DNA from: Minisyncoccota bacterium
GTDB taxonomy: Bacteria > Patescibacteriota > Minisyncoccia > Phycocordibacterales > UBA6065
Direction: 5' to 3'
NCBI GenBank assembly: GCA_041661645.1
Contig: JBAZUA010000001.1
Span: 45,618 to 109,617 of the forward strand
Length of the DNA stretch: 64,000 nucleotides
In this document: positions 1-39,506 of the stretch, piece after piece
Layout: each line of letters opens with the position of its first letter
How positions within the stretch are numbered: position 1 is the first letter of the stretch
Made by a program: the position numbers and the translations under genes
The notes under the pieces: generated by a model
What the model was told of the DNA's origin: nothing
The model's input: the letters and a program-made list of their open reading frames with translations, nothing else
Database searches by the model: none

Positions 1-210
1 AAGTCTTCCGCGCAGATTGTCGCGCTCTACGCGAAGGAGAGCCTCGTCGGAAGACTTGTCTTGGGCGTGGTCAATTTTCCTCCCCGTAAAATAGGGCCAT
101 TCGAGTCCGAGGTTTTGACCCTTGGCGTGCCTGATGGGGACGGGAAGGTCATTCTCGTAGCCCCGGATGACAAAGATGCGGTGATTGGAAGTAAGTTATT
201 CTAAAAGCCA
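1..210 (+). CDS. 3' end of a gene encoding a tRNA-binding (Myf/EMAP-like) domain; start lies outside the window
   Basis: Frame-1 translation ...VNFPPRKIGPFESEVLTLGVPDGDGKVILVAPDDKDAVIGSKLF* matches the C-terminal tRNA-binding domain seen in MetRS C-termini and CsaA. Confidence 0.5.
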
Positions 211-758: not shown

Positions 759-763
759 ATAAT

Positions 764-1246
764 ATGAAAACCCACCCCGAAACCACGATCGGCCACGTGC
801 ACCTGACCGTTGCTGACCTTGACCGATCGCTCGCGTTCTACCGCGACCTTCTGGGCTTTGAGGTGACGACCCGCTATGGCCAAAACGCGGTGTTCCTGTC
901 TGCCGGCGGGTACCATCATCACATCGGCCTCAATACCTGGGCGGGCAAGGGCGTCACACCGCCGCCACAGGGACACTCGGGCCTCTACCACTTCGCCATA
1001 CTCTATCCGAACAGGAAGGCCCTTGCTCAGGTCATCAAACGCCTCATCGACGCCGAATATCCGATCACGGGAATGTCGGATCACGGGGTCTCCGAGGCGA
1101 TATACCTCGATGACCCTGATATGATAGGGGTCGAGCTCTATGTCGATCGTCCAAGGTCAGAGTGGAAGGTAAGGAACGACGGTGAGGTGGAGATGGTGAC
1201 GAAGCCTCTCGACATCAAAGATCTGCTCGGCGAGCTTGATAAATAA
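764..1246 (+). CDS. VOC-family (glyoxalase/bleomycin-resistance/extradiol dioxygenase-like) protein
   Basis: 160 aa; N-terminal 'IGHVHLTVADLDRSLAFYRDLLGFE' and second beta-alpha-beta-beta-beta module are typical of the VOC superfamily. Confidence 0.7.
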   Translation: MKTHPETTIGHVHLTVADLDRSLAFYRDLLGFEVTTRYGQNAVFLSAGGYHHHIGLNTWAGKGVTPPPQGHSGLYHFAILYPNRKALAQVIKRLIDAEYPITGMSDHGVSEAIYLDDPDMIGVELYVDRPRSEWKVRNDGEVEMVTKPLDIKDLLGELDK

Positions 1247-1262
1247 AACCTAAAACAAACAC

Positions 1263-1697
1263 ATGCGAAAAATGATCCTCGGACTCGTCATCATAATGCT
1301 CGTCGGACTTTCGACTTTCGTCATACTGAAAAATCCCGGGCGAAATGAAGCCCCCGCAAATAGCACCGAACAGGTCACCACGACCACGGACAACGACAGC
1401 ACAGCGGTGACCACCAGCCTCAATCAGCCCCTCATATACAACAATGTCATGGTGACCGCCACCAAGGTGCTGGAGGATAGCCGCTGCCCGTCAGACGTTC
1501 AATGCATACAGGCCGGAACGGTCAGGCTTTCGCTTAACATAGAGACCACCCTCGGCACCTCGACCGTGGAGATGAGGCCGGGAGAAACGGTCAAACTCGA
1601 CGGATTCTCCCTTTCGTTTGATTCAGTTTCGCCATACCCGGTCTCGACATCAAAGATATCGCCTGCCGATTATAAGTTTATCCTCGGCATTCTCTAA
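1263..1697 (+). CDS. exported hypothetical protein (N-terminal signal peptide/anchor)
   Basis: 144-aa ORF with hydrophobic N-terminus MRKMILGLVIIMLVGLSTFVIL followed by a Thr/Ser-rich region; no recognisable domain. Confidence 0.4.
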   Translation: MRKMILGLVIIMLVGLSTFVILKNPGRNEAPANSTEQVTTTTDNDSTAVTTSLNQPLIYNNVMVTATKVLEDSRCPSDVQCIQAGTVRLSLNIETTLGTSTVEMRPGETVKLDGFSLSFDSVSPYPVSTSKISPADYKFILGIL

Positions 1698-1701
1698 AGA
1701 C

Positions 1702-2415
1702 ATGAAACTCATCTTTCTCGACACCGAATCGACGGGCATAGACCCGGCAAAGGATCGCCTTTGTCAGGTCTGCTACAGAACCGACGCTGACGGGACGCGC
1801 GTAGAATACTTCAAGCCACCAGTGCCGATATCGATCGAGGCAATGAGCATAACCCATATCACGAACAAGATGGTGTCGGACAAGCCCGCCTTCATGGGGA
1901 GCGGCATGCAAAATGATCTTTCCGCGCTTCTCGCCGAGGGAGTCCTTGTCGCCCACAACGCCAAGTTTGACAAGACCATGCTCGAGCTCGAGGGCCTGAA
2001 GGTGCCCAGGTTCATCTGCACCCTGCGCCTAGCCCGACATCTCGACGCCGAGGGTGTCATCCCAAAATACAACCTCCAGTATCTCCGCTATTATCTCGAC
2101 CTTGATGTAGCGGGAAGCGCGCACGACGCAGAAGGGGACGTGAACGTGCTCTATGCCGTATATCAGAGACTCTTCGCAAAGGTCCGCGCCCAGGAGGCGA
2201 GCGACGAGGCGGCGATCGCCAAGATGATAGACATATCGGGCAAACCCTCGCTCTTCCGAACCTTTAACTTCGGCAAGCATATGGGCAAGAGGCTCGAGGA
2301 CGTGGCCAAGACAGACCGGAACTATCTCGAATGGCTGCTCGGGCAAAAGCTCGCGAGCGGGGAGGATGACGAGGATTGGATATATACGCTCAAGTTCTAT
2401 CTGGGGAAGGCCTAG
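1702..2415 (+). CDS. DEDDh-type 3'-5' exonuclease (DnaQ-like) with C-terminal extension
   Basis: Start MKLIFLDTESTGIDP (Exo I motif D-x-E), later VAHNAKFDKTML (Exo II) and YHDA-like motif; upstream ORF extension lacks an RBS. Confidence 0.7.
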   Translation: MKLIFLDTESTGIDPAKDRLCQVCYRTDADGTRVEYFKPPVPISIEAMSITHITNKMVSDKPAFMGSGMQNDLSALLAEGVLVAHNAKFDKTMLELEGLKVPRFICTLRLARHLDAEGVIPKYNLQYLRYYLDLDVAGSAHDAEGDVNVLYAVYQRLFAKVRAQEASDEAAIAKMIDISGKPSLFRTFNFGKHMGKRLEDVAKTDRNYLEWLLGQKLASGEDDEDWIYTLKFYLGKA

Positions 2416-2432
2416 CGAGCGCCTGAAGATAT

Positions 2433-2461
2433 TTGACAATATACAATATATTATATATAAT
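2433..2461 (+). promoter_or_regulatory. near-consensus sigma70-type promoter (TTGACA-17 nt-TATAAT)
   Basis: TTGACA at 2433-2438, 17-nt AT-rich spacer, TATAAT at 2456-2461, ~50 nt upstream of the 2511 ORF. Confidence 0.5.
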
Positions 2462-2510
2462 ACACAAGTAAGCTGTTTCATTCAAAAACCGTCAGTTTTT
2501 CCTTTTACCT

Positions 2511-3230
2511 ATGAAAAAGCAGATCCTTGTCAGCATCAGTATTCTCGTGGCATTTTTTGCCACTGTTAGCGCGAGTGCCGAAGGCGGATTTTTCTCGTTT
2601 GACGTCTGGGACAAATATGTCACGGCAGACTCGGGTCTGGCCTACGACAATCCCGTGCTTCAGACCTACACCTCAAAAGACATCGGCAAAGGTTTCTACG
2701 CGGGTCTCTTCACGTCCGTCGCCGACAAGAAAGGCTACGGCAACGAAGTGGACCTGAGCTTGGGCCGATCCTGGGGAGACACCGTGCAATACGATGTCAG
2801 CGTATCGTATTGGAACATATCCGAGTTGGACAGGACGAACTCGGACCTCTGGGTGCTCACCCTCGACGCTTCGAAGGAAGTTCTCTCGGGACCCATCAGT
2901 GTAACCATCGGCGCATGTCTCGAAAGCTACGTTCCTATGGAGAAATCCTTCTGGACCGGCGGCTATCGGGGCACGCTAAGAACAAGCGTCACCAAAGAGC
3001 TAGTCAAGGACAAGCTCAGCCTCAACGGTGAGGTGTCGCTTATGCGTGACGATGGGTCCCTCGGGTCTAATCCATCCTTCGTAGCAGGCCTGTCCGGAAG
3101 CCTGGCGTGGACGGTCGGGAGATTCACAATCATGCCAATCGAGGTGAAAGTCACCGAGATACTAAGTAACGTGAGTGACGGCCGCAAGGACCGAATCGTC
3201 CTGGGCGCAGGCATGTCCACCACGTTCTAA
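2511..3230 (+). CDS. abundant exported beta-rich protein, porin/OMP-like (signal peptide, C-terminal Phe)
   Basis: Signal peptide MKKQILVSISILVAFFATVSASA; Gly/Ser/Thr/aromatic-rich alternating pattern; ends …GAGMSTTF; driven by the consensus promoter and followed by a terminator. Confidence 0.45.
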   Translation: MKKQILVSISILVAFFATVSASAEGGFFSFDVWDKYVTADSGLAYDNPVLQTYTSKDIGKGFYAGLFTSVADKKGYGNEVDLSLGRSWGDTVQYDVSVSYWNISELDRTNSDLWVLTLDASKEVLSGPISVTIGACLESYVPMEKSFWTGGYRGTLRTSVTKELVKDKLSLNGEVSLMRDDGSLGSNPSFVAGLSGSLAWTVGRFTIMPIEVKVTEILSNVSDGRKDRIVLGAGMSTTF

Positions 3231-3252
3231 CGCGTCGGAATTAGTCAGTTTC

Positions 3253-3293
3253 GGGAGCCGTAACCTTCAAGGTTGCGGCTCCTTTTGTTTTTG
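3253..3293 (+). terminator. rho-independent terminator
   Basis: GGGAGCCG…CGGCTCC hairpin followed by TTTTGTTTTTG. Confidence 0.6.
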
Positions 3294-3348
3294 TGTAAAA
3301 CCCGGAGACATCGTTACGATTGCCCCCATAGGGAGCTGATGATATGCT

Positions 3349-4344
3349 TTGGCTATCAAACCCATGTCACAGCCACGAAAAATCCTCCTCTCGGGCGTAA
3401 GGCCCACTGGTCGCCCCCATATCGGAAACTATTTCGGCGCGATGAAGCAGTTCGTCGACCTCCTGAACACCGGCAACTACGAGTGCTACTTCATGATCGC
3501 CGACTATCACGCCCTGAACTTCATACAGAACAAGGCCGAGATGCAGACGAACATCATCGACCTCGCCCTCGACTATATCGCCATCGGCCTCGACCCAAAG
3601 AAGTCCGTGCTGTTCAAGCAGTCTGACGTCTCCGCCCACACCGAGCTCGCCTGGATATTCGACAGCATCACCACCATGCCATATCTCATGCGCGCGAACG
3701 CCTTCAAGGATGCGGAAGCCAAGAACTCCGAGATAAACGTGGCGACCTTCAACTATCCGATGCTCATGGCGGCAGACATCCTGATATATGACGCGGATAT
3801 AGTTCCCGTGGGCCTCGACCAGAAGCAGCACATCGAGTACACCCGCGACACGGCCCAGAAATTCAACCGCATCTTCGGCGAAACTTTCAAATTGCCAAAA
3901 GAGCTCATCGTCGAGAATGTAAAGACCGTCCCTGGCATCGACGGGCGCAAGATGTCCAAGTCATACGGCAACACCATCGGGCTCTTTGCCACCGACGAAG
4001 AGATAAAGAAGGCCGTGATGTCCATAGTCACCGACTCCGGCAAGAATCCCGACGGAACCCCATCCGTGCCGGTAAACGTTCGTGCCATTCACGAGCTCTT
4101 CCGCGACAAGGCGTATCTCGACGCGCTCTATGCCGAGAAGGCGGGAAAATATAAAGACCTCAAGGAAGCTCTGGCCGCCGACGTTCAGGCGTTCATCAGG
4201 CCGATGCGAGAGCGACGCGACAGGCTCGCACAGAATCGATCAAAGGTAATGAAAATCCTGGCAAAGGGAGGGAAGAAGGCTGCGAAGAAGGCAAACAAGA
4301 CGATGGAGAGGGTGAAGGAGGCGGTTGGCGTGACCCTCGAATAG
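3349..4344 (+). CDS. trpS: tryptophanyl-tRNA synthetase
   Basis: Class I aaRS with HIGH-type motif (GRPHIGNYFGA) and KMSKS; 331-aa length and overall pattern are typical of TrpRS. Confidence 0.9.
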   Translation: MAIKPMSQPRKILLSGVRPTGRPHIGNYFGAMKQFVDLLNTGNYECYFMIADYHALNFIQNKAEMQTNIIDLALDYIAIGLDPKKSVLFKQSDVSAHTELAWIFDSITTMPYLMRANAFKDAEAKNSEINVATFNYPMLMAADILIYDADIVPVGLDQKQHIEYTRDTAQKFNRIFGETFKLPKELIVENVKTVPGIDGRKMSKSYGNTIGLFATDEEIKKAVMSIVTDSGKNPDGTPSVPVNVRAIHELFRDKAYLDALYAEKAGKYKDLKEALAADVQAFIRPMRERRDRLAQNRSKVMKILAKGGKKAAKKANKTMERVKEAVGVTLE

Positions 4345-9675: not shown

Positions 9676-10224
9676 ATGAATCCGCTCAGCCTGGAATCAC
9701 AGCTCGAAGCGCTCCTGTTCTGGAAAGGGGAGCCGATGTCGACCAAGAAGATCGAGGCGGCTTTGGGCTGCACGGCCGATGAGCTGGCCGCGTCCACGAC
9801 CGCCCTTGAGGCCAATCTGGGTGGCCGCGGCCTCCGCATCATGCGCCACGAGGGCGAGCTTGAGCTGCGCACCGCTCCCGAGGCGAGCGACCTCATCACG
9901 AAATTGACCAAGGAGGAGCTCATGCGAGACCTCGGCAAGGCCGGCCTCGAGACCCTCTCCATCATTTTATACAAGGGGCCCGTCAAGCGATCCGAGATCG
10001 ACTACATACGCGGGGTGAACTCGTCCTTCATCGTCCGAAACCTGCTCGTCCGCGGACTGGTCGAGCGCATGGCCGAGAAGGAGGGCGACAAGAGGGGATT
10101 CCTCTATGGCCCAACCCTCGACCTGCTCGCCCACATGGGCGTGGCAAAGAGGGAAGACCTCCCCGATTACGAGAAGACCCGCGCCGAGCTCGAGGCATTT
10201 TCAGCAACAAGCGATGAAGCCTAG
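9676..10224 (+). CDS. scpB: segregation and condensation protein B
   Basis: Tandem winged-helix pattern (LEALLFWKGEPMS…; …ILYKGPVKRSEIDYIRGV…) typical of ScpB. Confidence 0.85.
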   Translation: MNPLSLESQLEALLFWKGEPMSTKKIEAALGCTADELAASTTALEANLGGRGLRIMRHEGELELRTAPEASDLITKLTKEELMRDLGKAGLETLSIILYKGPVKRSEIDYIRGVNSSFIVRNLLVRGLVERMAEKEGDKRGFLYGPTLDLLAHMGVAKREDLPDYEKTRAELEAFSATSDEA

Positions 10225-11146
10225 GAGCATGGCCATATTGCAGCTGAGCGCCCTGGCCCTGTGCCTCGGGCTCATCCTCTGGTGGGCATATCCAAAGGCG
10301 GCCGTCACCGTGCCTCAAGTACAGCTCAGCGAAAGCGTCTCCACAACGACCTCTCCCATCTTCGATGCGGTGAACATCGAGGCAAAATCCGCCTACGTAT
10401 ACGACACGGTGACCAAGAAAGTCATCTTCGACAGGAACTCCGACCTGCAGCTGCCGCTCGCGTCCCTGACCAAGGTGATGACGGCACTCGCGGTGTCCAA
10501 CCTTCTCTCGGACAGGGATGTGGTCACGATAACCCAAAGCGACCTGAGCGAGGACGGCGACACGGGCCTCGTGCCCAACGAGGAGTGGAGCGTCAAGGAC
10601 CTGCTCGACTTCAGCCTGATCGTCTCGTCGAATGACGGCGCCCGCGCCCTGGCATCGGTGGCAGGCGCCTTCCTCGGCCCGACCTCCTCGACCTCTGCCG
10701 TCGAGGCCTTCGTGGGCAACATGAACTCGACCGCAAAAGGGCTCGGCCTCACCGAGACCTACTTCCTCAACCCCTCGGGACTCGACGCCTCGGAAACCCT
10801 CGCCGGGGGATATGGGTCGGCAAAGGACATGGCCCTCCTCGTCGACCACATACTGAGGAACAAACCACACCTCCTCGAGGCAACCTCCTTTGACAGGCTC
10901 AGGATCTCGTCCGGCCTTGCAGCCCACGAGGCCCTCAACACCAACAAGGCGATCGACATGATACCGAACGTCATAGCCTCGAAGACAGGGTATACGGACC
11001 TCGCCGGCGGCAACCTGGTGGTGGCCTTTGACGCCGGCGTCGCCCACCCTATAATCATAGCCGTCCTCGGCTCCTCCTTTGACGGCAGGTTCCAGGATAT
11101 GGCTCAACTGGTTAGTTCCACGCTCGACTATCTGGCGCAGAAATAG
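10214..11146 (+). CDS. D-alanyl-D-alanine carboxypeptidase / serine-type PBP (S11-like)
   Basis: Signal peptide; SxxK (ASLTKVM), SxN (SSND) and KTG (ASKTGYT) motifs; start overlaps the scpB stop. Confidence 0.85.
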   Translation: MKPRSMAILQLSALALCLGLILWWAYPKAAVTVPQVQLSESVSTTTSPIFDAVNIEAKSAYVYDTVTKKVIFDRNSDLQLPLASLTKVMTALAVSNLLSDRDVVTITQSDLSEDGDTGLVPNEEWSVKDLLDFSLIVSSNDGARALASVAGAFLGPTSSTSAVEAFVGNMNSTAKGLGLTETYFLNPSGLDASETLAGGYGSAKDMALLVDHILRNKPHLLEATSFDRLRISSGLAAHEALNTNKAIDMIPNVIASKTGYTDLAGGNLVVAFDAGVAHPIIIAVLGSSFDGRFQDMAQLVSSTLDYLAQK

Positions 11147-11161
11147 GGCCTCGCCGTCTAT

Positions 11162-11190
11162 TTGACTTTTCTCATATATAGTGATACAAT
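11162..11190 (+). promoter_or_regulatory. near-consensus sigma70-type promoter (TTGACT-17 nt-TACAAT)
   Basis: Hexamers at 11162-11167 and 11185-11190, ~85 nt upstream of the 11274 start. Confidence 0.5.
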
Positions 11191-11273
11191 AGTACAAGGA
11201 AATACACCCAAGCTCTTTGAGAACTCAACAGCACGTTGTTTCTTTTTCCGGCTTACCTACGAAAGGATTAGAC

Positions 11274-12575
11274 ATGAGCGAAAGCTCCGTCAGCGAAACC
11301 ACTGCCGGCCAAGGCGTCAAAGCCAAGGCTGTTGTCATCATCAACACAATCATCACTCACGCCCGTCCTCACTGGGACGAGACCGTGGGCATAACCCTCA
11401 TCCAGGACTACGGCAAGGACACGTTCGATACCAGCGGGGCCAGCATCATCACCGTCAAGGGTGACCCCAAGGAAATCGAAGCGTATGCCAAGCGCCCCGA
11501 TCTCATCATGATCGGCGTCGGTGGCGACCTGGTCAAGATGAAGGGTCGGCAATGCTTCATCTTCGATGAGCACGGGCTCACCGACAAGAAGTGCGCGGCG
11601 GACCTCGTGGCGGAATATCTCGGCGTTGACGAGCGGCTCATGCCTCTCCTCATCGAGGTTCGCGAGAGCGACCTCGAGCGCAAGAATAACCCCCTGTCGA
11701 TGGCGACTGTCCTGAAAGTGAGCCACGACCAACGCCCCCACGAGGAGGCCAAGGTGATCGAGCTCGGACTGCGGGCCGCGAAAGCGATCTGCGTCAGCCT
11801 TCTAGGCACGGGCTTAGTGGCAAAGGATCCCGACACCTTCCTGGTGAAGGCCTCCGAGGCCTACGTGAAGATTGGCGGGGCGAACGGCGTCAAGCCGATC
11901 GTCTTCAAAAATCTGATCGAACAGCTCCAGGTGGCGGCGGCCGCGAAGACCTTTTCCGAAATCAGCACGGTGTTCTACATCATGCAGGCGGAAAACAGGG
12001 AAGAAGCTGGATATTGGCTGAGCAAGGTCCTCACGGACCTCGTTCGTCGCCACGTCGACTTCGACCGTGCGCTCGAGGACTTCAACTCAAATCACGACGA
12101 AATCAGCGTCCCGTTCGGAAACAACGGCGCGACCATCCGAGTCGCCTTCATGAAAATGGAGAAGGAGTATGGCCTGATGGATCAGGTCTTCCGGTGCAAG
12201 CAGGCCGGCGGATGCGACATGTTGATCCTGAAGAACACGAGGGGTCAAGTCTGCATCTTCACCAATGACAAGGGTCAGAAGGGGAGATTCGACCTCGATC
12301 CTCTCGCGAGAATGATCCGCTGGGCGGAAATCGCGAAGTCGAAGCGCCACCCTGAGGGTTGGTGGTCGCTCAGTTGCGACCGTGATCATCCGGGCGTATG
12401 CCAGTGGCATTACTTCAAGAAGGGCTCGATGCTGCTGAATGGGAGCAAGAGCAAGCCCGATGTGCCTGCTACGCGGTTGGGTTACGAGGATTTCGTCTAC
12501 ATCCTCGGGTGCGCGTTCTCGGCGAACGGCATCAGACAGTTCATCAAGGACAGTCAGGTGGACACGAAAAAGTAA
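11274..12575 (+). CDS. hypothetical protein (433 aa), stand-alone transcription unit
   Basis: RBS AAAGGA 6 nt before ATG 11274. Own consensus promoter and own terminator. Cys/His/Trp-rich C-terminal part (…GWWSLSCDRDHPGVCQWHYF…). No domain I can assign. Confidence 0.6.
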   Translation: MSESSVSETTAGQGVKAKAVVIINTIITHARPHWDETVGITLIQDYGKDTFDTSGASIITVKGDPKEIEAYAKRPDLIMIGVGGDLVKMKGRQCFIFDEHGLTDKKCAADLVAEYLGVDERLMPLLIEVRESDLERKNNPLSMATVLKVSHDQRPHEEAKVIELGLRAAKAICVSLLGTGLVAKDPDTFLVKASEAYVKIGGANGVKPIVFKNLIEQLQVAAAAKTFSEISTVFYIMQAENREEAGYWLSKVLTDLVRRHVDFDRALEDFNSNHDEISVPFGNNGATIRVAFMKMEKEYGLMDQVFRCKQAGGCDMLILKNTRGQVCIFTNDKGQKGRFDLDPLARMIRWAEIAKSKRHPEGWWSLSCDRDHPGVCQWHYFKKGSMLLNGSKSKPDVPATRLGYEDFVYILGCAFSANGIRQFIKDSQVDTKK

Positions 12576-18387: not shown

Positions 18388-18900
18388 TTACATCAAAAGC
18401 TCGTCGGCCAGAATATTCCGGACCTCCACGAGGTTTATCTTGAGCTCGTCGAGGGTTCGGGCAATCTTCTTATACCTCATGGTCGTAAAATACTCGACCT
18501 GAAGGTTCACCAGCGACCCTTCGTTGTCCGCGGACAGGCGGAAGTCTCCCCTATACCCTGCCACCACCTTGCCGAGGGCCGCGGCGCAGCCGATCTCGCT
18601 CGCGGTGCCGCTGTCGACATCGATGCCATCGAGAATCGCGATGACGACATGGGACTGCCTTATGGCCTCGTGATTGTTGCGGGCGATGAGCGGATTGAGC
18701 CTCTGCCAGGACTTTCTCTTCTGGACGCCATAGGGCATCCTGACGACTGGATCGATAAGGGAAGGCGAAGTCAGTTCCCACGGGTCGAGGATCTCGAATC
18801 CGGCGGAAGCGACGAGTGGCTTGAACAAAGAGGCGTAGGCGTGTCTGCCTAGCTCTGAAAAGCCCAGAGGGCTTGCGATATACGCTTTTGGTTGTCTCAT
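18388..18900 (-). CDS. nucleoside 2-deoxyribosyltransferase-like protein
   Basis: N-terminal KAYIASPLGFSE (cf. 'IYLAGPFF') and VVIAILDGIDVDSGTASEIGCAAALGKVV (cf. 'DsGTafEiGyAyAlGKPV' with catalytic Glu) match the PF05014/SLOG-type fold; minus-strand terminator hairpin GCCGCCCGAAGCAATCGGGCGGC lies downstream. Confidence 0.7.
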   Translation of the reverse strand: MRQPKAYIASPLGFSELGRHAYASLFKPLVASAGFEILDPWELTSPSLIDPVVRMPYGVQKRKSWQRLNPLIARNNHEAIRQSHVVIAILDGIDVDSGTASEIGCAAALGKVVAGYRGDFRLSADNEGSLVNLQVEYFTTMRYKKIARTLDELKINLVEVRNILADELLM

Positions 18901-18996
18901 ATGATAAAGGTCTTCTGTCCCCGATACTACCCTCCTCCGCCCAATTTGCAAGAAAAAGCCGCACCTTGTGGGTGCGGCCCTGAATTGTAACGAGCC

Positions 18997-19839
18997 TCAG
19001 GAAGCAGGATGATCCTGATAGACCTTTGTGGCCATGAGGACCAATGAGTCGTAGTGCGTGAGGGGTCCCAAAACACCCCTGCACACGATAAGCGACTCAA
19101 CGGCGGTTTTTATCTCGGCCTTGCAGAGAGAGGACACCTTGATGAACAGCTCCCATGAGCGCTCGGGGGGAAGTTCCTCGTCAAAGGAAAGCCCTCCTAC
19201 CCCAAGCCTCACAATGATCTTCCTGAGGTCATCGACGACGAAACCTCCTTTACCCCCATGGCGAACCTTTTTCCAGAGCTCGGTCGGGGCCTCGATGAAG
19301 GCCGTGAACATGACGTCTTCCCTGAGATTAGGAACGATGTCTTTCCAGACGTTGCGGTTATTGTCATCCGTGACCCAACCGAGGAAGACCATGGACCACC
19401 TGCTGAGCTCAACGTCGATGTGGTCCGGGCCCGAGGCGCGAAAGACCCAGTTGCGCCGATGCGTCCTGTTCGTGTTGCACAGGAGATTCCTCAGAAGCGG
19501 GAGCAGGATAAACCGGTGAGGATCCTTGAAAAGGAGGCCTCTGTCCGAGCTGTTTCCGGACTCACGGCTGATAACCATGTTCACGAGCATCGAGCGAGCC
19601 TTGAGCGACAGGGTCTCCCCTCCCGCCTTGAGCTCCTCGTCGGAGAGTCCCGTCTGATCGGCGACCTCGAGATAGAAGGCGAGACGTTTTGCGCTCGTAT
19701 CCTCGTCCGATTCGTCGATCTTGATTTCGTAGCCGTGATGCAACAGGCCGAGCTGCTCATAGAGCGACAGGCCCGGGGTTTCCCAACGATCCATCCACTC
19801 TTTCCATGTGGCGGGTTTAGCGCCGATGTTTAGTTTCAT
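18997..19839 (-). CDS. hypothetical protein (281 aa) in an operon between PgeF-like and NDT-like genes
   Basis: ORF from MKLNIGAKPATWKEW…; co-directional, 96-108 nt gaps to both neighbours; no recognisable domain. Confidence 0.5.
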   Translation of the reverse strand: MKLNIGAKPATWKEWMDRWETPGLSLYEQLGLLHHGYEIKIDESDEDTSAKRLAFYLEVADQTGLSDEELKAGGETLSLKARSMLVNMVISRESGNSSDRGLLFKDPHRFILLPLLRNLLCNTNRTHRRNWVFRASGPDHIDVELSRWSMVFLGWVTDDNNRNVWKDIVPNLREDVMFTAFIEAPTELWKKVRHGGKGGFVVDDLRKIIVRLGVGGLSFDEELPPERSWELFIKVSSLCKAEIKTAVESLIVCRGVLGPLTHYDSLVLMATKVYQDHPAS

Positions 19840-24154: not shown

Positions 24155-25393
24155 TTATTTGACCGTGTTCAGTATTTCTACCGCCTTTGCCATCTGGGGG
24201 TCCTTCTTGGCCTTTATATCGGCATCCGTGACCGGAACGACATAGTCAGGGGTGATTCCCTCGTGAGAGATCGACCTGCCGTTTGGGGTGAGCCATCGCG
24301 CAACGGTAACCTTGAGAGATGTATCCGAAGTGATCGGCACGAGCTCCTGGACCGACCCCTTGCCGAAGGTCTTGGCGCCAACGAGCTTTGCCACACCCTG
24401 TTCGGAAAGGGCGCCCGCGAGGATTTCCGATGCCGAGGCGCTGCCACCGTCGACAAGGATGACCATGCGGAGCTTGTCGGTGAATATGTCATAGCCCTTG
24501 CTGCGATACTCCTTGTCCTCGGCCTTGCCCTGAGACTCCTCGCGAACGATCATCTTTCCCGTGGGAAGGAACCAGCTGGCCATATCCACGGCCGCGTCGA
24601 GATATCCGCCCGGATTGCCGCGAAGGTCGAGGACGAGCTTGGTATCGCCGGAATCAACAAATTCCTTGAGGGCATTCCTGAAGAGATTTGCCGAACTTGC
24701 GCTAAAGCTGTAGAGGGAGATGGTGAAAATGCCGTCCTTGTCGTCGGTCTTGAGGGTGGGTATGTCTATGATGTCTCGGATAATGCTGAGGACGAAGGGC
24801 TGGGCGATGCCGTCACGGGCGAGGGTGAGCTTGACCGAAGTCCCGCTTTTGCCGCGGATGAGCTTGACCGCCCGGTCGGTCGACATCGAGAGGGATTCAA
24901 CGTCATCAATCCTTACGATGAAGTCGCCAGCCTTGACGCCCGCAGCCTCGGCGGGACTGCCCTTGATGGGAGAGACGACGGAAAGCTTGCCATCCTTTAT
25001 GCCCACCTCCATGCCGACTCCGCTGAAGCTGCCGGCTATCTCGCTTTTGAATATCTCGGCCTCCGCTGGCGGGAAGAACACGGTGTACGGATCGCCAAGG
25101 GACTCGGTCATGCCCTTGATTGCGCCCCAGACCCTGTCCTGAGAGGAGGCCAGGGTTGATGTCGAACTGGTCGAGTTGCTGGAGAACTTGTCGTCGAGTA
25201 TCTTCCAGGCCTTCCAGAAGGTGGCGAAGTCGACGCTGTCCATCTTGCCGTCCTTGTTGATGACGTTCTGGACCAATGACTCGGCAGGAACCGACCTCAC
25301 GCCGAATTTGAAGCCTGCGAAATACGATGCCCCGACCAAGACGACCAGCACCGCCGCCGATACTATGCGCTTTGATGAATTCATGGACGCCAT
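24155..25393 (-). CDS. ctpA: carboxy-terminal processing protease (S41 family, PDZ-containing)
   Basis: N-terminal anchor, PDZ region, tail-specific protease core with …GNPGG… and …DGGSASASEI… motifs; start choice 25393 vs 25384 is uncertain. Confidence 0.85.
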   Translation of the reverse strand: MASMNSSKRIVSAAVLVVLVGASYFAGFKFGVRSVPAESLVQNVINKDGKMDSVDFATFWKAWKILDDKFSSNSTSSTSTLASSQDRVWGAIKGMTESLGDPYTVFFPPAEAEIFKSEIAGSFSGVGMEVGIKDGKLSVVSPIKGSPAEAAGVKAGDFIVRIDDVESLSMSTDRAVKLIRGKSGTSVKLTLARDGIAQPFVLSIIRDIIDIPTLKTDDKDGIFTISLYSFSASSANLFRNALKEFVDSGDTKLVLDLRGNPGGYLDAAVDMASWFLPTGKMIVREESQGKAEDKEYRSKGYDIFTDKLRMVILVDGGSASASEILAGALSEQGVAKLVGAKTFGKGSVQELVPITSDTSLKVTVARWLTPNGRSISHEGITPDYVVPVTDADIKAKKDPQMAKAVEILNTVK

Positions 25394-25421
25394 TATACTA
25401 TAGGGACCACCCGAATTACAT

Positions 25422-26791
<1,370 letters not shown>

Positions 26792-26792
<1 letters not shown>

Positions 26793-27460
26793 TGAAATCG
26801 CGTGCCTTCACACTCATCGAACTCCTGGTCGTCATATCGATAATCAGCCTTTTGGCGTCCATAGTCATCTCATCCCTCGGCTCAGCGAGGCTCAAAGGCC
26901 TGGAGACATCAATAAAATCAAATCTACGCAGCGCCATAAACGCGCAGGAACTCGAATATGACAAGGCGAGCCCAAACACCTATGCCGCGGGATCAATCGC
27001 TCCCGCGGCCCTGTCCGGAATGCTTCAGGCCATCGATACTGCGGGTGGCACCACCGGATACTATAGCCGAGACGGCACGAGGTGGGCGGTCTCTGCCAAA
27101 CTAGACTCAAACACCCAAAAGAACTGGTCTGCGGACGGATCAAGCGTCGTGTCGTGGGACACGCAGGACGTGAACGTATCCGGGGCTTTTGTCTCATCGG
27201 GCGTGAAGATGAACTGGGTCACTGCCGTATCCGCCTGCGCGCTTTCGAGAGGGCGACTGCCGACAATCGAGCAGCTAGAGTCACTATTCCTGGCCCACAA
27301 CTCGCAGGTCCCCACTGCTTTTCTGCCCAGCTCGTATTGGTCAAACACCAGTGGCCTCGGCAACAATACCGCGTATTATATAAACCTGAACAACAACGTA
27401 ATACTAAGCTCCAACAAGACATCTTCGCTCTTCAAATATTACGTCCGCTGCGTTCGTTAG
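26792..27460 (+). CDS. prepilin-type (type IV pilin-like) protein with C-terminal DUF1566 (Lcl-like) domain
   Basis: N-terminus MKSRAFTLIELLVVISIISLLASIV (class III signal / N-methylation motif). C-terminus …RGRLPTIEQLESLFLAH…YWSNT…YYVRCVR matches the DUF1566 hallmark (WRLPT…EL…L … RCVR). The ATG shares its A with the cysS stop TAA (…TAATG…). Confidence 0.7.
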
Positions 27461-27464
27461 GGAA

Positions 27465-28340
27465 TCATCTCGACGCGACTGTCGGTAGACCCTCGGATTC
27501 GATGGCATACAATGCGCCGATTTCGGTCGCCGTGAGCGTCTTCGCGTAAAGGCGGACCTTGGTGATATTTCCTGTGAGGTAACCCGTCGTACCCCCGGCA
27601 GAGGCACCCGACAATAGCGGGCCGTTCAAATTCAGATTTCCCGCCATCCCGCTAATGCTGAAATTAGAGACGCTTGTCGCGGTGCCGTTTATGTATATGC
27701 TTACCACATTGGCGCTTCGATCAACGACCATGGCCAAGAAGGTCCATCGATTGAGCGGTATTTTCTGTGAGGTACTGAAGCTCTTGTTGGTGCCGGCCGA
27801 ATCTATCATCATCCCCGCCACGTTGCCGTTGCAGTTCATGCCCAGGGCCATGCGTACGGGGTTACCCCAGCTCGAGAGAACATTCACGTTGTGCGAACAG
27901 GAAGGGTTTGCGGTCGGGTAGATCCAGCCGGCGACCGTGAGGTTGCCCGTGCCGAGCTGATATGCGGGCACGTTCGTGCTGCCTCCCGCGTATGTTATCG
28001 GTGCCGTGCCGTTCATGACTATCGAGCAGCCCTGGTTATTGGGACTCATGTTTGACCAGGATATCCCCGACGCGATCGCGCCGCCGTTACCATAGCCCGA
28101 CCTATCTGACATGGTCACGCCTGAACACTCATTGAAATCCCACATGCCCACCGCCTGATCACCGGCGACGCCATCAAGAGTCTGCGCGAATTGGAGCCCG
28201 GCGGAGATGCGGGCCCTGTCTCGGGCTGAATTGAGCGTGGAAAGCACGACCGAGGACAGCAAGGAGATTATCGATATGACGACCAAAAGCTCGATAAGGG
28301 TGAATCCTTGATAGCGTGTCGTGGTTTCTGGATACATCAT
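27465..28340 (-). CDS. prepilin-type protein with C-terminal LamG-like (ConA-like lectin) domain
   Basis: N-terminus …QGFTLIELLVVISIISLLSSVVL; C-terminal …GNITKVRLYAKTLTATEIGALYA… typical of Laminin_G_3-type domains. Confidence 0.7.
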   Translation of the reverse strand: MMYPETTTRYQGFTLIELLVVISIISLLSSVVLSTLNSARDRARISAGLQFAQTLDGVAGDQAVGMWDFNECSGVTMSDRSGYGNGGAIASGISWSNMSPNNQGCSIVMNGTAPITYAGGSTNVPAYQLGTGNLTVAGWIYPTANPSCSHNVNVLSSWGNPVRMALGMNCNGNVAGMMIDSAGTNKSFSTSQKIPLNRWTFLAMVVDRSANVVSIYINGTATSVSNFSISGMAGNLNLNGPLLSGASAGGTTGYLTGNITKVRLYAKTLTATEIGALYAIESEGLPTVASR

Positions 28341-28387
28341 GGATGGCTGATATTATAACACCGCTAGTGCATGATATAATCTTTTCC

Positions 28388-29209
28388 ATGCGGACTATTT
28401 CTCGAAAGGGCTTTACCCTCGTTGAGCTCCTGGTCGTCATATCGATAATCAGCCTCCTCGCAAGCACCGTCCTGTCAACCCTAAGCGGCGTCCGAGACAA
28501 GGCTCGCGTGGCCGCGGGAAGGGAGTTCAACGCGATCGTCTATCACACCATAGGCGATATGGCCGTGGGCGTCTGGAGCTTCGATGAGTGCTCGGGAACG
28601 GCAGTGTCCGACACGTCGAGTTTGGGGAACAACGGAACCGTTGGATCGACGCTCTGGTCGAGCGACACGCCAACAGGATCGGGCTGCTCCCTCTCGTTCT
28701 CGACCTCCTATGTCAGCGTCGGCACATCAAACATGCCGAACATAGAGTCACCAAAGACCTTTAGCGTGTGGATAAAATACAACGGCGTCCCTGGCGGGAG
28801 CACGATCAACCTCTTTGCCGGCGGAAGCAACTCGATACAAATGGGCTTTAGCGGCGGAACGGCATTCAGGGTCTGGAAATATGGCGGATCGGCGCTCGTC
28901 AGCCTGCCAAGCCTCTTCTCTTCCGGCGTCTGGCATCAGGTAGTCTACACGTATGACGGGACGAATCACATACTCTATCTAGACGGAGCGGAAAAAGCCC
29001 GCTCGACGAGCGTCTCGGGACAAAGCGGTCAGACCGTAAGCGCCTCACTGGGCGGATCCGTATACGACAACCTGATAGGCATGCTCGATGACGCACGCGT
29101 CTATTCCTCAACCATTTCAGCGCAGGAAGTCGGAAGGCTCTACGCTGACGGACTATCGGCCCATCGTCCCATGGCGGACATTTCAACACTCATCCGGCCG
29201 AAGATCTAG
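28388..29209 (+). CDS. prepilin-type protein with C-terminal LamG-like (ConA-like lectin) domain
   Basis: N-terminus MRTISRKGFTLVELLVVISIISLLASTVL; C-terminal …LDDARVYSSTISAQEVGRLYADGL (LamG_3-like). Confidence 0.7.
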   Translation: MRTISRKGFTLVELLVVISIISLLASTVLSTLSGVRDKARVAAGREFNAIVYHTIGDMAVGVWSFDECSGTAVSDTSSLGNNGTVGSTLWSSDTPTGSGCSLSFSTSYVSVGTSNMPNIESPKTFSVWIKYNGVPGGSTINLFAGGSNSIQMGFSGGTAFRVWKYGGSALVSLPSLFSSGVWHQVVYTYDGTNHILYLDGAEKARSTSVSGQSGQTVSASLGGSVYDNLIGMLDDARVYSSTISAQEVGRLYADGLSAHRPMADISTLIRPKI

Positions 29210-29219
29210 GTTGAAACAA

Positions 29220-29975
29220 CTATTTTCGAGAATCCCCTTTTATCGTCGCGATCGCCTCCTGTACGGTGGTCATGAACTGTGCCGGGAATATAATCGTGGA
29301 GTTTTTCTCGGTGGCGATCTCGGACATGGTCTGAAGGGTACGCAGCTGAAGGGCGACAGGATGGAGGGCTATGATGTCTGCGGCCTCACCCAATTTGACG
29401 GCGGCTTGGAACTCGCCCTCTGCGGCAACTATCTTCGCGCGGCGCTCCCTTTCGGCCTCGGCCTCTTTTGCCATGGCCCTCTGCATGTTGTCGGGAAGGA
29501 ATATATCCTTTATCTCGACGGCGGTCACCTCGGCTCCCCACGGCTCGGTATGCGCGTCTATCACATCCTTTATCTGGACGTTAATGTCGCCAGTCTGGGA
29601 AAGCAGCTGATCGAGCGAGAATCGTCCGACGATGTTTCGCACCGTGGTCTGGCTGATCTGATTCACCGCATCATACACATTCTCGATGGCGATGACGGAT
29701 TTCTGAGGATCGACGATCTTATAATACGCCACAGCGGCAATGTCTATCGAGACATTGTCCTTGGTGATTATCTTCTGCGAGGGAATGTTCATGGTGATGG
29801 TGCGCAGGGTGACCTTTGTCATCATCTCGAGGATTGGGATGAGGATGATGAGGCCCGGACCACGCACCCCCGTACACTTACCAAGAAAGAATATGACCCC
29901 TCGATCGTATTCCTTTACGACCTTGAGCGAGAGGGCGAGCAAGATGACGATAACGACTGCGATAATGGTGATCAT
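29220..29975 (-). CDS. SPFH/Band 7 (stomatin/prohibitin-like) membrane protein
   Basis: N-terminal TM, then …[14 protein letters not shown]… and a long Ala/Glu-rich coiled coil typical of the stomatin family. Confidence 0.85.
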
Positions 29976-29999
29976 GATGTTTAAAGTATATATCAGTTC

Positions 30000-31448
30000 C
30001 TAAAAGACTTCGAGAACGTCGCCCGACAGGCTATCCAGGATTTTCTGACGCTCCTTGCCCAAGAGTTCCGCCGCCGTATCGACGGACACGCTCTCCGCCA
30101 TGAGATAGTCGCGTGTTGCGTCAGAGGGATTGACTACATATGCGTCATACTCGTTCTTCTTTCTGGTCCAGAGGTCGACTTGCGCCTGATAGGCCTTGAG
30201 TCGCACGTCATTGTCCGCCTGAAGCTTTCCGAGGACCTTCTGTTGATAGGGGTCAAGCTTCGCCACGGAGCCGTCATAATCGATCAGGAAGACGCGAAAG
30301 GCATATGATATCGATTTGAGGGAATCGAATGCCTTGGCGATGTTCTGCGCGGCCGCCTTGAGCTTGATGGCATAGAGCCTCGGTATCTTATCCTCCGTGT
30401 CACTGTTGAGCTTGCCGTTGAAATAGTCAAAGGAATTCTTCCCGGTGACGCTGTCGACGGCGAACTTGATCGAGTCAGACTGATTGATGTTGGCGTAGAG
30501 TCCGTCAAGATATCCGCGGAAGAGAACCTCTACCGCCGTCTTGTCCTTCTTGTCCTTATAGAGCTTCATGCCCTGGACAAGCAACGGGACCCTCGAAGGA
30601 AAGAGGTTCGTCGTAATCGTATATTTGAGACAGGTCTTCCCCTCCTCGAGCACCTTGCAGGCAAACGAGCCCGACATGCCGATAAGGCCACCCTTTGCGC
30701 TGATGAGGGCGCTGCCATTGTCAAAAGGCCTGCTGTCGCTCGTGGCCTGCATCGATGACGATGTCTTCTGGGTGACGATAGCCGAGACGAGAGACAGACC
30801 CGTGGACTGGGATCCGGGAAAACCTACTACGTAGACGCCATCGCCGACCGCCGACGCGCTGCCATAGTTCAGGGAAAGGTATGAGGAGGACTTTTTGTCG
30901 GAAAGCTGGAGCACAGCCAAATCGTTTGCCTCTTCGAGGCCAACCAGAGTTGCCCTCTTCGTCACGCCGCTCGAGAGGGAGACGTTTACAGAGGTGGAGG
31001 TGCCCATGACATGAAAGGCTGTCAGTATGTGCCCTTGGGCATCGATGATTGATCCGGCGGCGCTCGAAGAGGCACCAATCACGAGGACGATGGATGGCCT
31101 GACCTTTGCCAGAATGTCCTTTGACGCGAGGTTAGCGCCCGAGGATGCAGAAGGGGCCGCAGGGGTGGGCACGGATGCTGACACAGCCGATGGCTTTGCC
31201 CCCGATTGGGCTTTCTCCAGATCCTCCCGGGCACGATCAAGCTTGAGCTCAAGCTCGGCAATCCTCCTATAGAGATCGTCTGTCGTGGGCAGTGACGAGA
31301 GGTCCGCCACGCTTGTCGATGCCGTAGTCGAGGCTGTCGCCGGGGTCGTTCTGGCGTTCTTCCAGGTGAACGGATTCCACCAGGCGGCGGAAGCCGTAAG
31401 GGGCAGAAAAGTGAGGCTTAGGAGCGCCAGGACTATCGCTTTCTTCAT
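30000..31448 (-). CDS. secreted trypsin-like serine protease domain protein with coiled coil and large C-terminal domain
   Basis: Signal peptide MKKAIVLALLSLTFLPLTASA. …GHILTAFHV… (His), Asp region, …GGLIGMSGS… (Ser) arranged like the S1 family. C-terminal ~200 aa unassigned. Confidence 0.6.
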   Translation of the reverse strand: MKKAIVLALLSLTFLPLTASAAWWNPFTWKNARTTPATASTTASTSVADLSSLPTTDDLYRRIAELELKLDRAREDLEKAQSGAKPSAVSASVPTPAAPSASSGANLASKDILAKVRPSIVLVIGASSSAAGSIIDAQGHILTAFHVMGTSTSVNVSLSSGVTKRATLVGLEEANDLAVLQLSDKKSSSYLSLNYGSASAVGDGVYVVGFPGSQSTGLSLVSAIVTQKTSSSMQATSDSRPFDNGSALISAKGGLIGMSGSFACKVLEEGKTCLKYTITTNLFPSRVPLLVQGMKLYKDKKDKTAVEVLFRGYLDGLYANINQSDSIKFAVDSVTGKNSFDYFNGKLNSDTEDKIPRLYAIKLKAAAQNIAKAFDSLKSISYAFRVFLIDYDGSVAKLDPYQQKVLGKLQADNDVRLKAYQAQVDLWTRKKNEYDAYVVNPSDATRDYLMAESVSVDTAAELLGKERQKILDSLSGDVLEVF

Positions 31449-37431: not shown

Positions 37432-37896
37432 TCAAGGTATCAAAGCCTTGAATTTTTCTTTCAACACCGAATATTCTGATATAGGCAAAGTGCCCACCTT
37501 GTATCCCAGACGCCTACCATCAATCAATCTGACCTGAGACAGGATGGCCCGACTTTGAATGCCCGGAACGAAAGAAAATTCAAAATAATAAACACCAACC
37601 CTGTCGCTCAGGCTCTTGTTTGATTTAGTCAGTGGCACAGCCCAAAAGATGTCATGGTTAAACTTCCTGAGTATGATGACGGGCCTAAGGAAATCGGGTC
37701 CCTTGCCGTCCTGCTCAAGACCCACATTTGCACCCATATACACAAACCAAATCTCCCTCTCATGAAAGAGGGGTCTTGATCTCGACGCGTCTATCGACCT
37801 CTTCTTTTGGTGCCATGTATCGAAATCTTTCCCCATCCCGTTATCATACAAAAAGGAGCATGAAGAGACGCTAAAGAAAATATAAAAAGGAACCAA
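37432..37896 (-). CDS. PemK/MazF-family endoribonuclease-toxin-like protein with N-terminal extension; no adjacent antitoxin gene
   Basis: …REIWFVYMGANVGLEQDGKGPDFLRPVIILRKFNHDIFWAVPLTKSNKS…AILSQVRLIDGRRLGYKVGTLP… aligns well with MazF/EndoA/Kid (GxEQxGxRPxxVI…VxPxT…ID.RRL). Probable start at 37836 (MGKDF…); a hairpin overlaps the 3' end. Confidence 0.65.
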   Translation of the reverse strand: MVPFYIFFSVSSCSFLYDNGMGKDFDTWHQKKRSIDASRSRPLFHEREIWFVYMGANVGLEQDGKGPDFLRPVIILRKFNHDIFWAVPLTKSNKSLSDRVGVYYFEFSFVPGIQSRAILSQVRLIDGRRLGYKVGTLPISEYSVLKEKFKALIP

Positions 37897-37916
37897 AACC
37901 GAGGCGCCACAGAAAC

Positions 37917-39506
37917 CTACGGCACCTCCTCCGCCACAGGCAGTCGCACGATGAACTCGGCACCCTTGCCCAAGCCCTCCGAGACCGCCTGGATTGTGCC
38001 CCCATGCCTCTCGATGATCTGGCGGGCCATGAAAAGGCCGACGCCCATACCCTCGGTGTCCGACGTCTTGGCCTGCTTGCTCCTGAAGAACTTGCTGAAG
38101 ATGCGAGACATATCCTCCTTCGATATGCCGATTCCCGTATCCCTGATGCGAACGACGATGAATCGCCCGTCCTGCTCGGCGGAGAATGATATGGAGCCTC
38201 CCGCCGGGGTGTACATCAAAGAGTTCTCAACGACGGTCTGGAAAGCGAAGTTCATGCGGCGCAAGTCGATGGAGACGAAGGGCAGGTTCTGGGGGCAGGT
38301 CGCCGACAGGCTGATGTTCTTGTCCCTGACCAGCTTCTGCAGGCTTGACGCCGCCCTATCGAGCACCGAGCACATGTCCACCCGCTCGGGTGAATAGGAA
38401 TAATGCGCCTCGTCCGACTGCTTGAGGCTGACCAGGGTGTCCGTGAGCTCGACAAGAAGCTCGTTCGCACTATCGATTTCCTCAAGGGCCGCCGCGGCAT
38501 CCTCGTCACCGCCCTTCCCTGCGATGCTCTTCTTGAGCATCTCGGATGCCCACCTGATGCGAGTCAGCGGGGTTCGGAACTTGTGGGTGACTATGGTGAT
38601 GAACTCGTACTTCAGCACGTCTATGTCGCGCGTCTTCTCCCAGACGAACCCCCCGACGAGCACGGCGATCATGGAAGAGACGATAGGCAGGGCCCATGAC
38701 GGCATCCACGGATACGCGGTGGCGGCTATGTCCTGCGCCGAATTTATGCCCGCGATGAGAAGACCTCCCACGGCGACCAGGACGCCGTATACCAGGGACT
38801 TCTTCGCCACGACCTTGACCTCCATGATGTCCGAGCGGATGATTCCATATGCAAGAGGCAGGACGTAGAGGCTGAACGGTATGGCGTAGAGGGGGTCGAG
38901 GGGAATGTCGAAGACGAGGACGAACGAGACGCTTCCCAAGGGGAGGCCTATGGCAATTGCCCAGATGTAATAAAGGAGACTCTCGCGCTCCAAAGGCTCA
39001 GCCTTTCTATATGAGAGAATTACCTCGAAGAGACAATATGCCCCGCAGAGCATGAAAAAGGCGACCATCGCCCAATAAAGGAAGCCGGGCTGATAGTAGT
39101 TCGGGAGGTAGAGCTTTGGAATCGATGGGTGAAGGAAGGCGGATGGGTTCGCCATGAAATAGAGAATGAAGCCAGCGACGACTGAATAGAGACCGACGAG
39201 GATGCCCGACCTCTTCTGATCCTTCCCGAGCGTTGCCAGTATCCAATGAACAAGGAAGGCGGCGATGAAGAAGACGGAAAGATCGCCCATGAGAATGCTC
39301 CTCGAGACCTCGGGATCGGGCGCATTGATGCCCAGGATGTGTGTTATCTGAAAGGTCGCAACAGATATGCTCAGAAAGAGGAATATGACGTGAAGAGTCT
39401 TGTGCCTCCCCTTCAGATAGACGGCAAAGCCAAAAATGAGGGTGAGCACGAAGGAAAAAGCGTATGCGACGTTGAGTATTGTCAGGGATATGTTGGTCGA
39501 ATTCAT
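37917..39506 (-). CDS. sensor histidine kinase with multi-TM (about 7-8 helices) sensor domain; no response regulator adjacent
   Basis: H-box …FITIVTHKFRTPLTRIRWASEML…; HATPase_c N/G1/G2 boxes (…NSLMYTPAGG…DTGIGI…GMGVGL…). Confidence 0.85.
   Translation of the reverse strand: MNSTNISLTILNVAYAFSFVLTLIFGFAVYLKGRHKTLHVIFLFLSISVATFQITHILGINAPDPEVSRSILMGDLSVFFIAAFLVHWILATLGKDQKRSGILVGLYSVVAGFILYFMANPSAFLHPSIPKLYLPNYYQPGFLYWAMVAFFMLCGAYCLFEVILSYRKAEPLERESLLYYIWAIAIGLPLGSVSFVLVFDIPLDPLYAIPFSLYVLPLAYGIIRSDIMEVKVVAKKSLVYGVLVAVGGLLIAGINSAQDIAATAYPWMPSWALPIVSSMIAVLVGGFVWEKTRDIDVLKYEFITIVTHKFRTPLTRIRWASEMLKKSIAGKGGDEDAAAALEEIDSANELLVELTDTLVSLKQSDEAHYSYSPERVDMCSVLDRAASSLQKLVRDKNISLSATCPQNLPFVSIDLRRMNFAFQTVVENSLMYTPAGGSISFSAEQDGRFIVVRIRDTGIGISKEDMSRIFSKFFRSKQAKTSDTEGMGVGLFMARQIIERHGGTIQAVSEGLGKGAEFIVRLPVAEEVP

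Follow-up and report, generated by a model that had tools for sequence, protein, structure and literature searches.

Three neighbouring genes of an uncultivated Minisyncoccota bacterium begin like genes for type IV pilins and end like genes for lectins. What kind of surface protein do they encode, and what might it do for the cell? The genes, here called g1, g2 and g3, lie in a stretch of 64,000 nucleotides from contig JBAZUA010000001.1 (assembly GCA_041661645.1, positions 45,618 to 109,617 of the forward strand). We refer to this whole 64-kb stretch as the window and number all positions from its first letter. We find that the products of g1, g2 and g3 are almost certainly prepilin-type proteins with lectin-fold modules. 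Fusion of a pilin to an adhesin is the best reading of these proteins; it fits the published concept of modular pilins, and it lends support to the initial annotation, which had proposed fusions of minor-pilin-like proteins to lectin or adhesin domains.

In each of the three proteins, a short polar leader whose last residue is Gly or Ala precedes a hydrophobic stretch of about 20 residues, and inspection of the sequences places a Phe at position +1 and a Glu at position 5 of each mature protein, as in type IV pilins. The leader of g1 is MKSRA, with cleavage predicted after Ala5 and the mature protein starting with FTLIELL. An Ala at position -1 is also seen in homologues P0028, P0061, P0094 and P0115. 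The leader of g2, MMYPETTTRYQG, ends in RYQG and precedes the same mature start, FTLIELL, and that of g3, MRTISRKG, precedes FTLVELL. The N_methyl family (PF07963) scores 29-32 bits in the three proteins against a Pfam cut-off of 21.2, and TIGR02532 scores 28-31 bits against an NCBIfam cut-off of 16.3. Together with the class III motifs, these scores bear out the earlier claim that all three proteins are of the prepilin type. A six-frame scan of the 64 kb with the motif [GAS][F..][TS]..E... returns exactly three matches, one in each gene. The α1 helix of about 50 residues that characterizes type IV pilins is likewise predicted by AlphaFold2 (AF2), at residues 8-58 in g1 and 11-58 in g3.

Behind this common N terminus, the three proteins differ. 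The AF2 model of g1, built on a 58-sequence alignment, has a predicted local distance difference test (pLDDT) score of 95.4 and a predicted template modelling (pTM) score of 0.88. It consists of α1 (8-58), a small head (helix 72-83 and four strands between residues 86 and 122) and a separate α/β module at about residues 126-222, modelled with the C-type-lectin-like fold of the Lcl C-terminal domain. Two cysteines of this module, Cys149 and Cys220, are invariant across the g1 family, and the computed isoelectric point of the module is 9.4. A profile of the g1 family matches Thermus PilA4 over positions 7-113 (E = 5e-14) and also matches Lcl (E = 1.3e-4). In addition, the first half of g1 is 40-47% identical to many proteins of about 140 aa that are labelled 'PilA' in the Candidate Phyla Radiation (CPR). 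Because of the PilA4 match and the likeness to these short PilA proteins, we regard g1 as a PilA-like pilin in which, judging from model and sequence, the DUF1566 module was added behind the head rather than put in its place.

The two other proteins, g2 and g3, are paralogues with 34% identity across their full length. Laminin_G_3 (PF13385) scores 75.2 bits in g2 and 76.0 bits in g3, well above the cut-off of 27.6, and the fold is a jelly roll of the concanavalin A (ConA)-like type. In the AF2 model of g3 (pLDDT 85.5), helix 11-58 is followed by a β-sandwich that fills the remainder of the protein. Foldseek aligns this model to 411 PDB entries at E<1e-3 (best E = 1.7e-10); the best matches are domain 4 of AbnA (TM-score 0.76 on the target, with about 215 aligned columns), the lectin-like domain of trans-sialidase and the HcN domain of a clostridial neurotoxin, that of tetanus. 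Some of these fold relatives bind sugars and others do not. A profile of the g3 family, or LamG-pilin profile, also matches the LamG domain of an S-layer protein (PDB 4qvs) with E = 1.3e-24 over positions 58-258. With the model of g3 filled in this way, a separate head would not fit, and in g2 and g3 the LamG/ConA-like jelly roll is predicted to replace it. The initial annotation had all three proteins carry their C-terminal domains instead of a classical pilin head; this is an apt, if predicted, description of g2 and g3, but not of g1, which is modelled with a complete head. Its view of these domains as lectin-like folds stands, with confident models of a C-type-lectin-like DUF1566 module in g1 and of ConA/LamG jelly rolls in g2 and g3. 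We also considered whether g3 might be TafC, and rejected this identity: the NCBIfam score is 38 bits against a cut-off of 410 and reflects merely a LamG-like similarity to the haloarchaeal Tat-fimbria subunit.

The coordinates of these features are collected in Table 1. All three open reading frames (ORFs) are present at the positions and on the strands originally given, with one correction. The ORF list had g3 begin at GTG 28316 (28316-29209), but this start is artefactual, and the gene really begins at ATG 28388. This start yields a protein of 273 aa, is also chosen by other gene callers on identical metagenome contigs, and lies 7 nt downstream of a perfect extended -10 box. Identical proteins are already annotated in a public metagenome-assembled genome (MAG) of a Candidatus Paceibacterota bacterium, on a contig of 263,169 bp, under the labels 'prepilin-type N-terminal cleavage/methylation domain-containing protein' and 'LamG-like jellyroll fold domain-containing protein'. 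At the nucleotide level, the sole repeats that blastn (word size 7) detects among g1, g2 and g3 are the stretches of about 45 nt that encode the signals.

Table 1. Positions of the three prepilin genes, their modules and the junctions between genes
Feature	Position	Strand	Remarks
g1	26792..27460	+	bimodular type IV pilin, 222 aa
g1, class III signal peptide (aa 1-5) and α1 (aa 6-58)	26792..26965	+	sequence; AF2 helix 8-58
g1, predicted pilin globular head (~aa 59-125)	26966..27166	+	helix 72-83 and four-stranded sheet
g1, predicted C-terminal DUF1566/Lcl_C C-type-lectin-like module (~aa 126-222)	27167..27457	+	family-invariant Cys149, Cys220
g2	27465..28340	-	LamG-headed prepilin, 291 aa
g2, Laminin_G_3 (aa 121-274)	27519-27980	-	Pfam
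g3	28388..29209	+	LamG-headed prepilin, 273 aa
g3, predicted jelly roll of ~200 aa (aa 59-~265)	28562-29182	+	AF2; directly after α1 (aa 11-58)
TAATG junction	26790..26794	+	cysS stop TAA 26790-26792 and g1 ATG 26792-26794 share one base
Divergent g2/g3 spacer, 47 bp	28341..28387	.	candidate promoter region; two perfect TATAAT boxes, back to back

Patescibacteria contain many proteins of both architectures. A search with g1 gives 2113 matches; among the best 120, about 60 are full-length N_methyl plus Lcl_C proteins of 200-270 aa, and their named sources are Paceibacterota and Nomurabacteria. A search with g3 gives 163 matches at E<=0.001. Of the best 120, almost all are N_methyl plus Laminin_G_3 proteins of 255-300 aa, with Paceibacterota, Taylorbacteria, Parcubacteria, Saccharibacteria and the 'Patescibacteria group' as named sources. 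When the LamG-pilin profile is run against 1.84 billion representative sequences, it returns 868,149 matches that are not specific to pilins. Most are giant multi-LamG proteins, which swamp the result, so this number shows only that the module is ubiquitous. In both families, conservation peaks in α1 and the first strands, with Glu5 and the full α1 strictly conserved, and is lowest within the lectin modules (residues 111-180 and 201-230 of g3; residues 191-220 of g1). Such variable modules would fit diversified binding surfaces.

The genomic settings of the relatives are varied. A g1 homologue with 48% identity is located after mscL and before an efflux/ABC unit, and the LamG pilins of three relatives are single genes among housekeeping genes. 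On the contig of the closest g1 homologue (L003; region 1-3674), a 3136-aa protein with a tailspike-like Peptidase_S74 match lies about 6-9 kb from the pilin gene. One small gene further on is a 706-aa protein with two Laminin_G_3 domains, and another N_methyl protein, of 179 aa, is encoded at 18806-19345. In these genomes, several kinds of surface carrier thus bear lectin-type modules.

The design of these proteins has precedents. Raynaud et al. (2021; PNAS, PMC8179133) defined modular pilins and counted their architectures in InterPro. The combination IPR012902-PF13385 was the most frequent of all, with 229 proteins, and IPR012902-IPR011460 accounted for 7 proteins, with the domain doubled in 2 more (PMC8179133); the database record identifies IPR011460 as DUF1566. 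Among the representatives of the 15 most frequent architectures are several from the CPR lineages Magasanikbacteria, Falkowbacteria and Wolfebacteria (PMC8179133). Our three proteins share these architectures, with class III signal/N_methyl followed by Laminin_G_3 in g2 and g3 or by DUF1566 in g1, and both appear in Dataset S1 of that study (PMC8179133). The census was based on domains only, and neither architecture came with a determined structure or function. Modular pilins were described there as complete pilins onto which a module is grafted by a linker, whereas the LamG domain of g2 and g3 is predicted to follow α1 directly.

Individual lectin pilins offer further comparisons. PilC of Streptococcus sanguinis, a ConA-like lectin pilin, binds sialylated glycans and glycosaminoglycans (GAGs) and has been proposed to act in a tip complex (Shahin et al. 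2023, PMC9934059). Like g2 and g3, it is a type IV pilin with a module of the ConA-like lectin/glucanase superfamily, in an organism without an outer membrane. That PilC is a lectin has been shown by experiment. It is larger (about 53 kDa versus about 28 kDa for g2 and g3), with a short distorted pilin head and an Ig-like module before the lectin, while in g2 and g3 the helix would lead directly into the jelly roll. PilC is absent from the best 60 of the 112 PDB matches of the LamG-pilin profile, and we see no kinship at the sequence level. Its gene sits in a pil locus with those of PilA and PilB; g1-g3, in contrast, are surrounded by housekeeping genes. Within the Patescibacteria, the lectin-like minor pilins PilX1 and PilX2 of Saccharibacteria (TM7x) have been implicated in binding to the host, an interaction that is inhibited by sugars (Grossman et al., PMC11623550 / PMC12206443). 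They resemble g1-g3 in carrying lectin-like accessory domains, that of PilX1 being of the β-jelly-roll/L-type-lectin-like kind. They differ in that they have no predicted PilD signal and are encoded inside type IV pilus (T4P) loci, whereas the signals of g1-g3 are canonical and their gene neighbours are housekeeping genes.

For the C-terminal module of g1, the closest solved relatives are the C-terminal domain of Legionella pneumophila Lcl (PDB 8q4e) and the tip of the Bdellovibrio fibre protein Bd2740 (PDB 8oks), both of them tips for surface adhesion. Trimers of Lcl bind GAGs, and Bd2740 ends in a trimeric C-type-lectin tip on a prey-handling fibre. These trimers cap collagen-like or coiled fibres, whereas the module of g1 is carried on a pilin. 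Because its carrier is a pilin and not a trimeric fibre, the g1 module is probably monomeric. Lcl also lacks a disulfide, while the g1 family has its invariant Cys pair. Overall, the lectin-tipped pilin is a known design, catalogued and common in this group of bacteria, and the new locus adds little to it.

How might these proteins work? We think it probable that g1-g3 are processed by a prepilin peptidase, displayed on type IV pili, and used as adhesins for glycans or surface polymers of a host or particle. The class III signal would insert each protein into the membrane, and the prepilin peptidase would cleave it before Phe+1. The hydrophobic helix bearing Glu5 would then place the subunit in a type IV pilus, whose machinery would be encoded elsewhere in the genome, and the pilus would show the lectin-fold module outside the cell. 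Each of the three differing modules would most likely have glycans or surface polymers of its own as ligands, and in this way an ultrasmall, probably host-dependent cell may attach to a host cell or particle, either at the pilus tip or along the pilus. The initial placement of these proteins as minor pilins at the tip goes further than the data do; the pilin module of g1 is closest to the major-type CPR pilins of about 140 aa.

Several observations weigh against this scheme. Pfam scans of about 57 ORFs in the 64-kb window detect no T2SSE, T2SSF, Peptidase_A24 (together covering the prepilin peptidase and PilB/C/T) or PilM/N/O, and contigs of the same population contain no T4P genes in the 9 kb upstream or the 0.4 kb downstream of the window. 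Nor does the window contain a gene for a major pilin of about 140 aa. Within the reach of these scans, the earlier statement that pilus assembly genes are missing from the window is borne out. The Lcl_C match of g1 (PF07603; 32.2 bits, E = 1.4e-7) falls just below the gathering score of 34.9, the assignment being backed by the fold and by PF07603 being recorded for most full-length homologues. Solved DUF1566-type domains (Lcl, Bd2740) act as trimers, an assembly that one copy carried on a pilin may be unable to form. A glycan ligand is only a prior, because proteins and lipids, too, are bound by LamG and C-type-lectin folds. Finally, the headlessness of g2 and g3 is a prediction from models, and polymerization of such subunits is putative. 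For this organism, assembly of g1-g3 into a pilus is a proposal. At the level of the lineage, the evidence for T4P machinery is strong. On the contig of a relative, a LamG pilin and a 438-aa PilB-like T2SSE ATPase are encoded 7 kb apart; this ATPase has >8000 matches at E<=1e-20, and every organism named among the matches listed is a patescibacterium. MAGs of Paceibacteria are reported to carry pilBCDMT together with clusters of genes with pilin signals (PMC9763046). Type IV pili have been described as a well-conserved trait of Patescibacteria that is almost universal in Saccharibacteria (PMC11623550).

It is also possible, if unlikely, that g1-g3 are surface-anchored lectins or pseudopilins and not subunits of a long pilus. 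The class III signal would in that case serve for export and anchoring, or for a short pseudopilus, and the LamG and DUF1566 modules would capture polysaccharides or other substrates. Analogues would be the sugar-binding proteins of the Sulfolobus 'bindosome' and the numerous proteins with prepilin signals in Planctomycetes and Verrucomicrobia. Such a role would be consistent with the lack of pilus machinery or a major pilin nearby, and with the single genes of the relatives, scattered among housekeeping genes and not gathered in pil operons. A scan with the pattern FTLIELLV, whose matches are mostly pilins of the Planctomycetes-Verrucomicrobia-Chlamydiae (PVC) group, further shows the same N-terminal motif in very many PVC proteins, and g2 and g3 appear in the models without a pilin head to make the normal subunit contacts. 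However, the strict conservation of Glu5 and α1 in both families is what packing into a filament core would call for. Moreover, g1 is modelled with a complete head and is closest to filament-forming pilins, and the filament system described in Patescibacteria is the T4P, not the type II secretion system (T2SS). Another idea, which we rate as quite unlikely, is that the g2/g3 family, with several hundred members in CPR, forms a distinct structural class of 'headless' pilins. Here LamG would replace the head, subunits would line the filament to make a multivalent lectin fibre, and an interchangeable set of them would fix the choice of host for an episymbiotic Paceibacterota cell. Since g2 and g3 retain Glu5 and the full α1, they may, like the PilA-like g1, be incorporated along the filament and not just at its tip.

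A different possibility concerns g1. Diversity-generating retroelements (DGRs) are frequent in CPR, and g1 might be the variable protein of one, its C terminus hypermutated to follow changing receptors. DUF1566 is a recognized class of DGR target (PMC5758913), and the final 30 or so residues are the most variable part of the g1 family. Yet blastn (word size 7) reveals nothing like a template repeat for the 3′ half of g1 in the 64 kb, Pfam scans of the window find no reverse transcriptase, and across g1 the metagenome contigs from this population agree at 99.99-100% identity. At this locus, the absence of a template repeat and of a reverse transcriptase from the 64 kb largely refutes the identity of g1 as a DGR variable protein, and we consider it extremely improbable. 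Adhesin pilins displayed on type IV pili remain our preferred reading.

The position of g1 directly behind cysS, identified by tRNA-synt_1e at 297 bits in Pfam, also calls for comment. The shared base in TAATG is real, as first noted, and a Shine-Dalgarno (SD)-like AGGAAG lies 8 nt upstream of g1 within the 3′ end of cysS. The overlap might therefore tie expression of the adhesin pilin to translation of the cysteinyl-tRNA synthetase, a regulatory coupling to which the two invariant cysteines of g1 could add some sense. We regard this as very improbable. The sole g1 homologue whose context was read, the 48%-identical one, is not beside cysS, and conserved cysS-pilin synteny is seen neither in this context nor in those of the three LamG pilins. 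The two contigs with the same arrangement (L001 and L002) are 99.99-100% identical to the window, so they represent the same population and do not count as independent evidence. A promoter-like site also occurs 136 nt upstream of g1. Adjacent genes routinely overlap by 1-4 nt, both in this genome and in its relatives: 4-nt overlaps link three consecutive glycosyltransferase/methyltransferase genes in the window, and on a Paceibacterota contig of 305 kb (L012) a LamG pilin gene (10001-10849) overlaps the downstream 6-phosphogluconate dehydrogenase gene (10846-11775) by 4 nt, which argues that the cysS-g1 overlap is generic. Given the lack of shared synteny, the routine short overlaps and the recurrence of the arrangement only in the same population, we read the overlap as incidental gene packing, possibly with co-transcription, and not as a functional partnership. 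The coupling, called odd in the initial annotation, looks instead like the packing of a compact genome.

The other two genes have candidate transcription signals of their own. In the g2/g3 spacer, the plus-strand TATAAT (28375-28380), preceded by TGn, is 7 nt from the ATG of g3, and the minus-strand TATAAT (28357-28352) is 11 nt from that of g2. Inspection of the sequence reveals no SD at either gene, so the mRNAs of g2 and g3 may be leaderless or nearly so. A consensus scan of positions 25300-30100 yields 9 promoter-like sites, compared with 2.9 in shuffled sequences; these are candidates by sequence. No convincing intrinsic terminator is found around the cluster, where their number is at chance level. 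At 27458-27467, the convergent genes g1 and g2 end with stop codons only 4 nt apart. A hairpin resembling a terminator is absent there, and the transcripts of the two genes would run antisense into each other.

Pfam scans of about 57 other ORFs of the window reveal housekeeping and envelope genes only. They include genes for several aminoacyl-tRNA synthetases, FtsW, MurG, ScpA/B, DnaB, RecR, and enzymes of the pentose-phosphate pathway and glycolysis. A tRNA scan and an Rfam scan of the 64 kb gave no match. With a GC content of 50-60%, the window lies high among CPR genomes. On either side of the cluster, envelope proteins are encoded on the minus strand (24155-25480, 29220-29975 and 30000-31448): an S41/PDZ C-terminal processing peptidase, an SPFH/Band 7 protein and a trypsin-like protease. 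The last of these has, by eye, a hydrophobic, signal-like N terminus. As called, the S41 ORF overlaps the start of cysS by 59 nt at its own start, so it probably begins further downstream. Further along, positions 51599-63850 hold a surface-glycan cluster on a single strand, with Methyltransf_24, a Polysacc_synt_3 flippase, an exostosin-like glycosyltransferase (GT), GT2, GT4 and GT11 (the fucosyltransferase family) members and further methyltransferases, several of the genes being joined by 4-nt overlaps. These genes could make a cell-surface glycan, which is of note beside lectin pilins. Small accessory genes also occur amid the housekeeping stretch, namely a PemK/MazF-like toxin ORF adjoining a 7TM-HisKA histidine kinase gene (37432-39506, minus strand) and a gene for a DUF3800 protein (48426-49157, minus strand).

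The recognition of hosts by CPR/Patescibacteria is little understood, and the foremost candidates for this role are type IV pili. Lectin-bearing pilins like g1, g2 and g3 are plausible determinants of its specificity. The direct junction between helix and LamG domain that is predicted for the g2/g3 family is the one point that may deserve structural follow-up.

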